A stretch of DNA of 64,000 nt from Pseudomonadota bacterium (GCA_036141575.1 JAYZXF010000017.1:78077-142076); one strand, 5' to 3'. Shown: positions 41,269-45,527, counted from the first letter of the stretch. The notes: a model not told the origin generated them from the letters alone. Program-made: numbers and translations.

Positions 41269-42108
41269 ATGAGGTTATTTGCAATTGTATGTATGTGTTG
41301 CGCACTGTTTGTCAGTGTGGCAGCCGTTTCTCAAACACGTGCAGGTGAAGGACTTTCACGCCAACTTCAATCTGTAAAATCAATGCTTGAGAGTTTCCGT
41401 AGCCATATAGATGGTGAAATCGCTCGTGTGGATAGTGAAATTAATACAGTGGATAGCAGAGTAGATGCTGCAAATACTAGAATGGATACCATGGACGGTC
41501 GTATGGATGGTATAGACACTCAGATTGGTGGCCTAAACTCGAGTATTAATTCACACGATAACCGTATTACAGCCCTAGAAAATGGGGAAACAGGTGTGCA
41601 AGTTTACAGAAACTGTGCACAACGTAATGTGACATGGGGCAGTGGAAATTGCCGAGGTACGCAGGGGCCCATTCCTCATGGCACAAGTATAACGGTTAGA
41701 GACACCGTTCAAGGTGATATTTGTACAAATAGATATCAATATGTTGGCTATGCTGTGTATAGTTGTAATGATGGTGTGGTAACGCGTAACGGGCAAGCTT
41801 GTCAGCGAACAGATTTCTACAATGAAAATCTATGTGAATCTGGCAGTGGTGGCGATAGCTATGCAAACTGTCAAGGTACAACAAGGACATGGTCAGAAAC
41901 GTATAATGGTCTAACTTCAACCTGTTCTGGATCAATTGGTTCTGTGCCACATGGTACAACCGCTACAGCAACAGACCCTAGAACTGGTTGTGACCGTCGA
42001 GACTTCACAGGTGGATCATCGACTTGGCTATGTGATAATGGTACTCTCAGAAGACAAGGTACTGCAACATGTAGAACCTGGGGCAGCTGGGGTAGCGACT
42101 GTCGATAA
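41269..42108 (+). CDS. secreted coiled-coil family member with 2 x 4-Cys modules (F3)
   Basis: Signal peptide, 'GEGLSRQLQSVKSMLESF', an Lpp-like repeat 'VDSEINTVDSRVDAANTRMDTMDGRMD', and Cys modules at 41614-41802 and 41869-42072. Ends in 'DCR'. Confidence 0.75.
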   Translation: MRLFAIVCMCCALFVSVAAVSQTRAGEGLSRQLQSVKSMLESFRSHIDGEIARVDSEINTVDSRVDAANTRMDTMDGRMDGIDTQIGGLNSSINSHDNRITALENGETGVQVYRNCAQRNVTWGSGNCRGTQGPIPHGTSITVRDTVQGDICTNRYQYVGYAVYSCNDGVVTRNGQACQRTDFYNENLCESGSGGDSYANCQGTTRTWSETYNGLTSTCSGSIGSVPHGTTATATDPRTGCDRRDFTGGSSTWLCDNGTLRRQGTATCRTWGSWGSDCR

Positions 42109-42288
42109 TTGAATAAATGAAAGCAGAAAAGGAGGGCACATGCCCTCCTTTTTGCAACAGGGGATATATTTATTTTTCTTGAAGTATCAATGTATTGCAA
42201 TTTTTACTCACCTATTTGTCAGGGATATGTTTATTTAAAGTTGTGGTTATATATATAAATAAAATGTGATTTATAAAAGGGGTTTAAA

Positions 42289-43374
42289 ATGAGAGCTTTT
42301 CCGATAGTAATGATTTTATCCTGTTTAGTTTTACTAACAGGCGTAGCTGGTGCGCAGAGCACGCGCTCTGGTGAAGGTATTGCAAGGCAGTTAATGTCTG
42401 TTAAAAGTATGATTGAAAATTTTGCTGATAACATCCGCACACGTGTGCAGACCGTTGAAAATGAAATGGATGCGGTAGAAACACGTATGGATACAGTGGA
42501 AGCTGATGTTGCAAGCGTACTTGCAACCGTTGCAACACATGAAACACGGTTGAGCTCGCATGATTCATCTCTATCTGGCCATGGTCGCCGTATTCGAGCA
42601 CTCGAAGAGCGCGAGCCAACAGGTGGTGGAGGTAGTACAGCACCAACACCAAGTGCGTGTAACGGTAGAAACATGTCATGGGGAGGGGGATGTAGTGCTT
42701 ATGTACAATCTCTACCTGATGGGGGTGCTGTCGTTCTGAGAGATCAAGTTGCTGGTGATGTATGTACAAATAGACAGCAGTATGTTGGTCAAGTTCGTGT
42801 GGCTTGTAACAATGGTCAAATTTCTACAAAGAACGCCTCTTGTGAGCTGAGAAACGTTTATAACGCAACTCAGTGTAGTGGTGGCACAACACCAACACCG
42901 AAGAAGAGATGTGCAGCAAAAGATGTGAGCTGGAAGAACAATGCTGGTACAGTCACATGTCGTGGTAGAATTGTTGCAGCTGATCATGATTCAACACGTC
43001 GTGTAACATTTGATAACAACAATACAAAACCTGGTGGAAAACGTATTACTGGTGCAGCAAACTTTATTTGTGACAACGGTGTGTTCAAACGTACATCTAA
43101 GAACTGTAAAGAAACTGTTAACCCTGAGCCTCCTAAGCCTTGTGCAGGCAAGTCTGTGAGTTGGACTAGTAATGGTGTTACATGTCGAGGAACTGTTTCG
43201 AATACGCCACATGGTTTAACTTCAAGTGTAACAGACCCTAACCGAACACGAGAGTGTGAGAACATTATAGATACAACAGGTAGCGCAAGCTTCAGGTGTA
43301 CAAATGGATCGTTCAAGAAGGTCTCTGGCTCTTGCAGGCAGGTACGGAGTCGTCGAACAGGTGACTGTCGATAA
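42289..43374 (+). CDS. secreted coiled-coil family member with 3 x 4-Cys modules (F4)
   Basis: Signal peptide, 'GEGIARQLMSVKSMIENF', a coiled coil, and three Cys modules between 42658 and 43335. Ends in 'DCR'. Confidence 0.75.
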   Translation: MRAFPIVMILSCLVLLTGVAGAQSTRSGEGIARQLMSVKSMIENFADNIRTRVQTVENEMDAVETRMDTVEADVASVLATVATHETRLSSHDSSLSGHGRRIRALEEREPTGGGGSTAPTPSACNGRNMSWGGGCSAYVQSLPDGGAVVLRDQVAGDVCTNRQQYVGQVRVACNNGQISTKNASCELRNVYNATQCSGGTTPTPKKRCAAKDVSWKNNAGTVTCRGRIVAADHDSTRRVTFDNNNTKPGGKRITGAANFICDNGVFKRTSKNCKETVNPEPPKPCAGKSVSWTSNGVTCRGTVSNTPHGLTSSVTDPNRTRECENIIDTTGSASFRCTNGSFKKVSGSCRQVRSRRTGDCR

Positions 43375-43434
43375 GGACTCTATAAAAGAAAGCGGCGCAA
43401 GAGCGCCGCTTTTTTGTAACTCGAACGGCTCGCT

Positions 43435-43992
43435 TTATTTACATGGATCTGATGAGTAAGAACAAACTGGATTAGAAATAACAAAGTCACCATTACGACA
43501 AGTTACTGTAGCAGAGCCTGAAATATGGTTACCACAACGTGGGCGTGGGTGGGTAACTGTTGCAGTATCACCTTCATTGGCACCCCATGCAGTACTTGTA
43601 CATGTTGGATTACCATAGGCACCAGTCCATTGCACAGGTCTGCTTGTACAGCCAGACACTGTTCCAGAGCTGCCTGTCATATCATCGTGGGAAACGCAGC
43701 CTCGTCCATCTGCATCTGGGTGTGTTGGCCAGTGAATGCTTGGATCACCAGATGTATTGATACATGCTGTTCGTTGGTTCTCTCGTGTTTCAAGATTTGT
43801 TACACTGTTTTCAACGTTTGTCATGCGGGGTCTCATATCATTTGCAAATGCTTCCATCATATTTTTAAGAGATGTAAGCTGTCTGCTGATACCTTCACTT
43901 GTACGTGTCTGTGCATCAGAGTTAGAAATAACGATGAGGGATGCTGTTGTGAGAATTGCCGTAAAAATGAGGCAAGATTTTTTCAAATTCAT
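43435..43992 (-). CDS. secreted coiled-coil family member with 1 x 4-Cys module (F5)
   Basis: Signal peptide, 'SEGISRQLTSLKNMMEAF', loop 'CINTSGDPSIHWPTHPDADGRGC', and one Cys module. Ends in 'DPCK'. Confidence 0.72.
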   Translation of the reverse strand: MNLKKSCLIFTAILTTASLIVISNSDAQTRTSEGISRQLTSLKNMMEAFANDMRPRMTNVENSVTNLETRENQRTACINTSGDPSIHWPTHPDADGRGCVSHDDMTGSSGTVSGCTSRPVQWTGAYGNPTCTSTAWGANEGDTATVTHPRPRCGNHISGSATVTCRNGDFVISNPVCSYSSDPCK

Positions 43993-44104
43993 AATCTTTA
44001 TCCTTTACTTTTACCGGTTGATGCTACGCCTGTGTATGGGGGTGGTCAAATTAAAAAATGAAAAAGACCTAGAAAAATCTAGGCCTTATCACGTTTAAGT
44101 TGTT

Positions 44105-45106
44105 TTATTGAGGTTCACCATTATGCTCTTTAGAGAGTGGGTATTTTCCTTTTTTGTCTGGAATAGAGCCGTGGACAAGAATACCGTTTGCATAGTAAGT
44201 GTGGTCACCATCTAGCATAAGGTTGTAGAGGCGGCGGTCTTCTTCTTCCTGTGGGACAATCATGATGGATTCAATAAGCTGACGCTTGCCTTGTGCCATA
44301 ATGAGTGTTTGGCCAATTTCAAGCTGACCAATGTTACCAGAAAGTTGGTCGTAAGCTTCTTTCTCAGCCATATCTGGGTTAAGGGCCTTCCAGCCGTCTG
44401 TTGTCATAAGAGGGTGGTTATCTGTTGTAAAGGCAGTTTCACCGTTAATCTCAATAAGGTGCTGGTTTTTACCTTTGCGCAGAAGAGGGCGGTCAAGGTC
44501 TAGCACGGTGTTAATTGCACCGTCACGGCCCATCAGCTTATCACCAATTTTAACTTTATGAATTTCAAGGTCACTACCATCCGCCATAAGTACTTTTGTT
44601 TCAGCCGTAAAGCATGAGCCGCGGCAAACTGCTGCACAATTTTCCATACTATTAGGCGTTAGGTTTGTATTACAGCGGCAGGCACATCTCCACCCCACCC
44701 AAACTTGGTCGCTTGGGCATGTAGGAGGCGTGTAGGTGCCACCACCTGTTGGGCCTTCAATATCTGTATGTGTTACACAGTTATTGCTATCAGCATCTGG
44801 ATGGTTTGGCCAATACAGGCTTGTTGTTGATCTGTTATGGCAGAACGTTTGCCTATTAATAACTGTCTGGAGGTCTGAAATATCCGTTTGTGCTGTTGAG
44901 AGCTGTGTTTCTAGAGTGCTAATTCTAGAGCTCATGCCAGTAGACATGCTTTCCATCATGTTTTTAAGGGAGAGAACTTGCCTTGAAAGTGCTTCACCCG
45001 CACTTGTTTGTGCCCATACATTGGCAGCTAAAATGATTGTGCAAAGAGAGAGAAAGATTGCAATGGATTTAAGTATTTTACCCTTGAAAAACATAGTGGC
45101 CACCAT
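44105..45106 (-). CDS. secreted coiled-coil family member with C-terminal Hint/BIL domain (F6)
   Basis: 'AGEALSRQVLSLKNMMESM', loop 'CHNRSTTSLYWPNHPDADSNNC', then Hint blocks 'CFTAETKVLMADG', 'TTDNHPLMT' and 'HTYYANGILVHGS'. The start is at 45106 or 45094. Confidence 0.75.
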   Translation of the reverse strand: MVATMFFKGKILKSIAIFLSLCTIILAANVWAQTSAGEALSRQVLSLKNMMESMSTGMSSRISTLETQLSTAQTDISDLQTVINRQTFCHNRSTTSLYWPNHPDADSNNCVTHTDIEGPTGGGTYTPPTCPSDQVWVGWRCACRCNTNLTPNSMENCAAVCRGSCFTAETKVLMADGSDLEIHKVKIGDKLMGRDGAINTVLDLDRPLLRKGKNQHLIEINGETAFTTDNHPLMTTDGWKALNPDMAEKEAYDQLSGNIGQLEIGQTLIMAQGKRQLIESIMIVPQEEEDRRLYNLMLDGDHTYYANGILVHGSIPDKKGKYPLSKEHNGEPQ

Positions 45107-45197: not shown

Positions 45198-45527
45198 TTA
45201 CTTCTTGATACTGACAACAAGACTGTTTGTCGGTGCATCTTTAAGCTCTTCTTCAAGGACGATGTTTGTCTTGAGTTTGCCCTCAAGGATGTCGCGTAGC
45301 ACGATCAGGCGCTCAATAGATGTATTACGATCAGTATCATCAGGAAGGGCAACCATAAAGTAATCTGCTTTTTGCTCTTTTGCAGCCTTTAGGAATGCAC
45401 GCAGAGACTTTGCATCATCCTGTGCCACCCAGTGGTTGCTCTTTTGATATTGAAGCGTGTAAGACTCAGCAAAAGAAACAAAAGGAGCCAGCACCAGAAC
45501 AGTCAGTAAAGTGAATGTACGTTTCAT
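45198..45527 (-). CDS. small secreted protein (109 aa)
   Basis: Signal peptide 'MKRTFTLLTVLVLAPFVSFA'. Confidence 0.55.
   Translation of the reverse strand: MKRTFTLLTVLVLAPFVSFAESYTLQYQKSNHWVAQDDAKSLRAFLKAAKEQKADYFMVALPDDTDRNTSIERLIVLRDILEGKLKTNIVLEEELKDAPTNSLVVSIKK

Follow-up and report, generated by a model that had tools for sequence, protein, structure and literature searches.

Bacterial intein-like (BIL) domains cleave themselves, and those of type B, found in secreted bacterial proteins, do so without splicing and lack the canonical C-terminal His-Asn (PMC4031507, PMC7765530). An A-type BIL is recognized by the presence of this His-Asn without a nucleophile at position +1 (PMC4031507, PMC7765530), and B-type BILs are defined by having no similarity to intein block G (PMC4031507). 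HINT peptidases stand just before the toxin domains of Sec- and T5SS-exported toxins, from which they would free the toxin (PMC3482391), and earlier work had pointed to Hint-like domains at the C-terminus of secreted bacterial proteins (PMC2362128). BIL domains are among the least understood of the Hint families, and their purpose in secreted bacterial proteins is largely conjecture. Here we describe one such protein together with the compact and coherent subclade to which its Hint domain belongs, a subclade whose members have lost the splicing half of the active site, have kept the thioester-forming half, and end in a new conserved tail.

The window, that is, the whole stretch of 64,000 nucleotides which was analyzed (GCA_036141575.1, JAYZXF010000017.1:78077-142076), contains an ORF (44105..45106, minus strand) specifying a 333-aa putative secreted precursor of an uncultured alphaproteobacterium; its features and those of its surroundings are collected in Table 1. 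The identical protein is present in NCBI from a Pseudomonadota MAG, where it starts at Met5 (329 aa) and bears the name "Hint domain-containing protein." ORF 44105–45106 is one of four paralogs forming a secreted cluster (41269–45106) between ppiD and a gene for an Hsp70-like protein. Synteny is found in two related alphaproteobacterial MAGs, and both the copy number and the number of modules in the cluster differ among the three related MAGs. Paralogs bearing a Hint domain number two in GCA_035092205.1 (393 and 324 aa) and one in ANT-120. The ortholog of the Hint gene in the ANT-120 MAG comes as two separate ORFs (L006 6213–6659 and 6912–7394), which might reflect a frameshift, a pseudogene or an error of assembly.

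Table 1. Positions of the Hint gene, the segments of its product and neighboring features, in nucleotides of the window.
Feature	Position	Strand	Basis
Paralog without Hint domain, 279 aa; coiled coil and two Cys-rich modules, end ...SDCR	41269..42108	+	Alignment
Paralog without Hint domain, 361 aa; coiled coil and three Cys-rich modules, end ...GDCR	42289..43374	+	Alignment
Paralog without Hint domain, 185 aa; same signal peptide, motif and HPDAD module, end ...DPCK	43435..43992	-	Alignment
Terminator-like hairpin and T-run directly after the stop codon of the Hint gene	44064..44087	-	Consensus match only
C-terminal tail, residues 314–333, SIPDKKGKYPLSKEHNGEPQ	44108..44167	-	Clade motif, dN/dS, homolog identity
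End of block G, His312-Gly313 (His-Asn in inteins and A-type BILs)	44168..44173	-	DNA read and alignments
Hint (bacterial intein-like) domain, residues 165–313	44168..44614	-	HMMs, AF2, Foldseek, family profile
Block B Thr228-Asp-Asn-His231 (TxxH)	44414..44425	-	T228 nearly invariant, H231 invariant
Predicted scissile junction Ser164|Cys165	44612..44617	-	Cys165 invariant
Cys-rich region, residues 88–164, 8 Cys, end ...AAVCRGS	44615..44845	-	Sequence, alignments
Long alpha-helix, residues 37–87, probably a coiled-coil stalk	44846..44998	-	AF2 (H37–87, low pLDDT)
Family motif GExxSRQxxSLKNMxE	Directly after signal peptide	-	Common to all paralogs in alignment A2
Sec-type signal peptide, residues 1–32	45011..45106	-	Read by eye: basic n-region, hydrophobic core, ...NVWA|QTS
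Conserved 109-aa secreted protein, no family match	45198–45527	-	Between ppiD and cluster, 3/3 related genomes
ShlB/FhaC-type transporter with POTRA domains, 700 aa	50849–52951	+	Two-partner secretion pair
TpsA with TPS domain, 1424 aa	53017–57291	+	Two-partner secretion pair, syntenic in related MAG contigs

The carrier is a member of a lineage-specific family of secreted coiled-coil and Cys-rich proteins, and its N-terminal family is essentially confined to one lineage, with three matches in 5.8 billion sequences. A family search of the Hint protein gave no significant match N-terminal of the Hint domain, the coiled-coil families of Pfam matching its helix only weakly; in one paralog a weak match to the PHROG "adhesin" family lies within the coiled coil. 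The Cys-rich modules of the cluster follow the pattern C...SW...C...PHG...C...CNNG...C, and the Cys-rich region of the Hint protein includes a module, CxN...WPxHPDADxxxCVxHxD, which recurs in the 185-aa paralog. The position of the terminator-like hairpin suggests that the Hint gene is transcribed apart from the paralog downstream. No conserved accessory gene was found in the neighborhood of the Hint gene, nor did neighborhood comparison reveal any link between the Hint protein and the two-partner secretion pair. A defense system was considered and rejected, PADLOC returning only homing-endonuclease models which match through their intein blocks.

Residues 165–313 are a genuine Hint domain, the match being far past chance. 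Pfam, TIGR01443, the AlphaFold2 (AF2) model and Foldseek agree with the initial annotation in this respect, and the interval it had proposed maps exactly onto these residues. Hom_end_hint (PF05203) matches residues 165–206 [4.2e-13, 50.2 bits versus a cut-off of 32.1] and NCBIfam TIGR01443 (intein_Cterm) residues 294–312 [23.6 bits versus 15.6]. The protein is also matched, under the cut-off in every case, by the PT-HINT, Hint, Vint, Hint_2 and Intein_splicing families of Pfam; Hint, Hint_2 and Intein_splicing had been named beforehand as the models to search with. The AF2 model, for which the alignment input was 13 homologs, has a mean pLDDT of 73–95 in blocks of ten residues over positions 161–310 and is poor elsewhere. 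Foldseek comparison with PDB gave ranks 1–4 to BIL2 of the Tetrahymena BUBL1 locus [best E 1.6e-11], after which came the gp41-1 and DnaB inteins, the Clostridium thermocellum BIL and Hedgehog 1at0; the matches range in E-value from 1.6e-11 to 1.4e-5 and in target-normalized TM-score from 0.69 to 0.83. With the family profile (alignment A3) BUBL BIL2 [3e-18] and the C. thermocellum BIL [2lwy, 1e-16] are again found before all inteins. Both of these references are A-type BILs according to Dassa et al. 2004. Since the solved BILs lie far ahead of any intein in the family profile, the family is A-type-BIL-like in the sense of the reviews (His-Asn and no +1 nucleophile).

Among 1.84 billion cluster representatives, searched exhaustively with HMMER, 3809 proteins matched at E<=1e-3 and 79 at E<=1e-30; residues were counted after re-alignment of 161 proteins containing 288 Hint domains. 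Block G ends in His-Asn, mostly followed by Lys, in 213 of the 252 related domains in which this block is aligned. Such HN-type domains come from Saccharibacteria and other CPR bacteria, Bdellovibrionales, Rickettsiales, Pelagibius and others. Behind them stand Cys-rich or Gly/Ser-rich segments, more Hint domains or only a few residues, and the 213 lack the conserved tail motif described below. The phage genome collection yielded a single match, an ordinary intein in an NTPase.

Two further observations concern these relatives. Multi-copy BIL arrays are present in two giant proteins, a 4122-aa open frame of Mucilaginibacter angelicae (L047) and P0017 (4119 aa), each with at least five HN-type Hint domains, of which at least two stand back to back with linkers of 4–6 residues (...LVHNKGGDS|CF...). 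Of 28 BIL-type Hint domains, 12 give a match in the block B region (HPF.T..GWKS..P) to the Pfam AXH family, the module of Ataxin-1 and HBP1 [best E 6.6e-22], the matching relatives in alignment A3 being P0011, P0012, P0164, P0167 and P0176, and the family profile in turn matches Ataxin-1 AXH chains in PDB [3.5e-6]. These sequence matches suggest that AXH may derive from a BIL-type Hint domain; in the searchable literature no paper was found which names both "AXH domain" and "intein."

The strings upon which the initial annotation had based its assignment are all present as quoted. Block A, with the Cys1 nucleophile, is CFTAETKVLMADG at residues 165–177, the codon of Cys165 (44612–44614) being gca, in reverse complement tgc; block B, with TxxH, is TTDNHPLMTTDGW at residues 227–239; and blocks F/G are YNLMLDGDHTYYANGILVHGS at residues 294–314. 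The DNA likewise bears out that His-Gly replaces the usual His-Asn, and that a tail of 20 residues is all that follows the domain. Among the related domains the N-terminal set of residues is close to fixed: Cys1 is found in 260 of the 260 aligned at that position, the block B His in 270 of 274, and Thr or Ser at the block B position in 261 of 273. At position -1, where our protein has Ser, the 288 domains have Ser 108 times, Gly 37 times and Thr 34 times.

Within this family the domain of ORF 44105–45106 belongs to a distinct subclade of about 22 rare, uncharacterized protein clusters, the tail clade, whose members carry the motif [VI]PDxxGx[YF]x[LMIV]xxx(E)HxGE after the Hint domain. The alignment covers 20 sequences of the tail clade, and in each of them the Hint domain is the terminal one, behind cargo of varied kinds. 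Ten of the clusters were looked up, and each has a single member, with source names of at most "hypothetical protein" and no taxa; a homolog search with the clade profile returned only short proteins (135–295 aa), many of them on short contigs, and little was gained. Cys1-Phe2 and T-[DN]-N-H-P are invariant in the clade. The position of the Asn is occupied by Gly or Ser and never by Asn in the sequences aligned, the penultimate residue of block G varies (H, Y, L, M or I), and at position 314 clade members have G, N, V, F or Y where the Hint protein has Ser. The Asp of block F (D299) is not conserved across the clade either, this segment reading DGD, GGN, EGN or SDD. In the subclade immediately around ORF 44105–45106 the penultimate His is still conserved, though it would be unneeded without the Asn. 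The fixed N-terminal residues and the varied C-terminal ones of the clade are what would be expected if the N-terminal reaction alone had been retained.

The cargoes of the tail clade are mutually unrelated, except that a Cys is located 2–5 residues before Cys1 in every member with a recorded junction. Several of them carry segments resembling phage tail fibers [PHROG tail fiber, 7e-11 and 3e-7], and a search of the viral structure library gave as its best matches phage proteins labeled "Hint domain containing," one of them with collagen repeats. The "fiber-family" label which had been given to ORF 44105–45106 is thus better suited to the relatives of its Hint domain than to the protein itself, for which the N-terminal search gave nothing significant. 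One clade member, P0007 (L083 8376–9353), lies directly upstream of type IV pilus genes encoding a PilB-like T2SSE and a PilC-like T2SSF protein.

Given the fixed N-terminal residues, the discarded C-terminal ones and the terminal position of the domain, we propose autocleavage at Ser164|Cys165. The precursor would be exported by Sec and then fold, its C-terminal 169 residues comprising the Hint domain and a dedicated 20-residue tail. Cys165, helped by Thr228 and His231 of block B, would attack the carbonyl of Ser164 in an N-S acyl shift, and resolution of the thioester would part a coiled-coil, Cys-rich N-fragment of ~130 residues (about 33–164), with the end ...CRGS, from the Hint and tail by-product. 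The domain would be limited in this way to the first step of the intein and Hedgehog reactions; with Gly313 in place of the Asn, succinimide formation, C-terminal cleavage and splicing should be excluded. A cut before Cys165 in ...AAVCRGS|CFTA would leave a product whose end nearly coincides with the C-R or C-K end of the paralogs. Cys165 is the ninth Cys of the mature protein and the sole Cys of the Hint domain, and with eight upstream the number is odd, which leaves one free, unpaired Cys. Maturation by this route, with release of the N-fragment, is in our judgment probable. The points that we count against it are the variable Asp of block F, the conserved penultimate His in the protein's own subclade, and a Hint domain and tail which are more conserved than the cargo. 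In addition, the catalytic Cys could be blocked by a disulfide in the oxidizing periplasm.

The conservation of Hint domain and tail deserves consideration. Relative to an 83%-identical ortholog (L003) the dN/dS of the whole gene is 0.096, that of the Hint domain 0.094 and that of the tail 0.057; relative to paralogs of ~48% identity, the Hint domain is ~70% identical and the N-terminal regions or cargo 30–47%. Low dN/dS and high identity imply that the Hint domain and tail are under purifying selection, being maintained and not decaying. Their conservation goes beyond the obvious need of a single-turnover leaving group, and hints at an additional role. The tail itself is 55–84% identical in the homologs P0002–P0007. 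It is hydrophilic, the AF2 block means falling from 68 to 46 and 33 over residues 311–333, and no Lys is conserved in it across the aligned clade members.

One such role would be ligation. An acceptor, an amine or hydroxyl belonging to a component of the cell envelope, a paralog or a target surface, would attack the Cys165 thioester, so that the N-fragment became covalently attached through its C-terminus, as happens with cholesterol in Hedgehog, and the tail would serve in recognition of the adduct. There are precedents in that BIL2, the best solved relative, forms an isopeptide bond with Lys (PMC8616854), and in that Hedgehog-type proteins have an adduct or sterol recognition region after the Hint domain (PMC2362128). 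The low dN/dS of the tail, its company with an Asn-less Hint domain across unrelated cargoes, and the conservation of both above the cargo would fit well with this idea. However, no acceptor was found, the tail is 20 residues long, hydrophilic and modeled with low confidence, and neither a conserved accessory gene in the neighborhood nor a conserved Lys in the tail came to light; we consider ligation unlikely. Its most ambitious form, in which Hint domain and tail together make up an extracytoplasmic, ATP-independent ligase that passes a fiber-like C-terminus by way of the thioester to a defined acceptor (an envelope component, a partner paralog, or an amine on the surface of prey or host), the tail again recognizing the adduct, strikes us as quite improbable. 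Were it true, one would have a bacterial counterpart of Hedgehog cholesteroylation or of the "ubiquitination by splicing" of BUBL, and a means of covalent anchoring or adhesion at the tip of a fiber.

The conservation of Hint domain and tail relative to the cargo would also suit a Hint domain without catalysis, a lasting module at the protein's tip that serves in structure, in binding or, like an intramolecular chaperone, in folding. The loss of the C-terminal catalytic residues and the variable Asp of block F agree with such a role, and the AXH-like matches make inactive Hint derivatives plausible. But Cys1-Phe2 and T-x-N-H-P, invariant in the tail clade and near-universal in the relatives, are hard to explain without acyl-shift chemistry, and Cys165 is the only unpaired Cys. 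Because Cys1 and TxxH are invariant a non-catalytic role is the less likely one, and we regard it as very doubtful.

The intein-type blocks A, B, F and G are recognizable, and Ser314 could be a +1 nucleophile, so one might think of a true (mini-)intein or a splicing A-type BIL by which the N-fragment is joined to the tail, perhaps with His328-Asn329 as a displaced His-Asn. This dipeptide is conserved in the closest homologs and looked suggestive in a first alignment of 13 sequences. It was rejected after the clade had been widened: the dipeptide then reads HN, HE, HS, HD or HK, or the chain stops at the His, so that Asn329 gives way to E, S, D or K or is missing, and the His and GE alone persist. 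Moreover, position 313 is Gly or Ser clade-wide, position 314 is S, G, N, V, F or Y, and the domain is terminal and not inserted at a conserved site of a conserved host, the carrier being lineage-specific. Splicing of this kind is hardly credible, and the earlier opinion that it was unlikely can be endorsed on the Gly/Ser at 313, the variable 314, and the lack of a conserved host protein or of a C-extein beyond the 20-residue tail. Barely conceivable, finally, is a PT-HINT releasing peptidase which frees a C-terminal polymorphic toxin: PF07591 comes near its cut-off of 27.7 (26.0 bits with the full protein, 29.2 with the domain alone), HINT peptidases have their precedent upstream of exported toxin domains (PMC3482391) and the two-partner secretion pair is 6 kb off, but this reading is rejected because toxin and immunity genes are absent, the Hint domain being followed by 20 residues with no toxin domain, no immunity-like gene lying downstream, the next gene being a paralog of the N-terminal region, and PADLOC and Pfam revealing nothing else.

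It is already known that C-terminal Hint-like domains exist in secreted bacterial proteins (PMC2362128), and the present gene has its Hint label from automatic annotation. A coherent Asn-less subclade with a tail motif on fiber-like cargo appears, from the searchable literature, not to have been described before. The Hint-less paralogs, which end near the predicted end of the product, are a natural control, and this makes the locus a clean system for asking whether a bacterial Hint thioester serves simple maturation or covalent attachment. If cleavage is all that takes place, the domain would be a new but ordinary addition to the self-processing repertoire. Even so, it might be of practical use as a naturally C-cleavage-dead, thioester-generating tag of 149 residues.

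How does the predicted autocleaving domain compare with the systems already described? To the Peptidase_S74-type domains of phage tail fibers and tailspikes the likeness is in position and logic only, namely that of a self-removing distal domain of fiber-like proteins. Fold and chemistry are unrelated, the Peptidase_S74 type being a protease with a Ser-Lys dyad as against the Hint thioester. With Hedgehog and other Hog proteins the domain has in common the order of secreted cargo, Hint domain and short C-terminal region, a small residue before the Cys-Phe of the junction, the lack of a C-terminal Asn with use of the N-terminal reaction only, and the structural match to 1at0 [1.4e-5]. Unlike a Hog domain, it matches PF01079 at 22.3 bits versus a cut-off of 29.7 and over residues 155–240 only, its host is bacterial with no known lipid acceptor, and the 20-residue tail has neither the size nor the sequence of the Hog sterol or adduct recognition region.

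Functionally, B-type BILs are the closest description of the tail-clade domain. Pfam Hint_2, which we take to be the B-type BIL family, matches the Hint domain at 16.9 bits versus a cut-off of 28.4 and over the first 40 residues only. The dissimilarity to intein block G by which the type is defined does not hold here, blocks F/G being recognized by TIGR01443, PT-HINT and Intein_splicing. A-type BILs (2lwy; 6tmm/6y75) give the best profile and structure matches, and share Cys1, TxxH and an intein-like block F/G with our domain. They too are found in variable, non-conserved, secreted proteins and not in conserved housekeeping ones, which has its parallel here in the signal peptide, the copy-variable paralog cluster and the diverse cargo. 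They differ in the conserved His-Asn that characterizes the type, for the Asn is Gly in the present protein and Gly or Ser across the tail clade, where the His is dispensable as well, and in that the tail-clade domain is always last and is then followed by a conserved tail motif of 15–20 residues. By its sequence, then, the domain looks like an A-type-like BIL which has secondarily lost its Asn.
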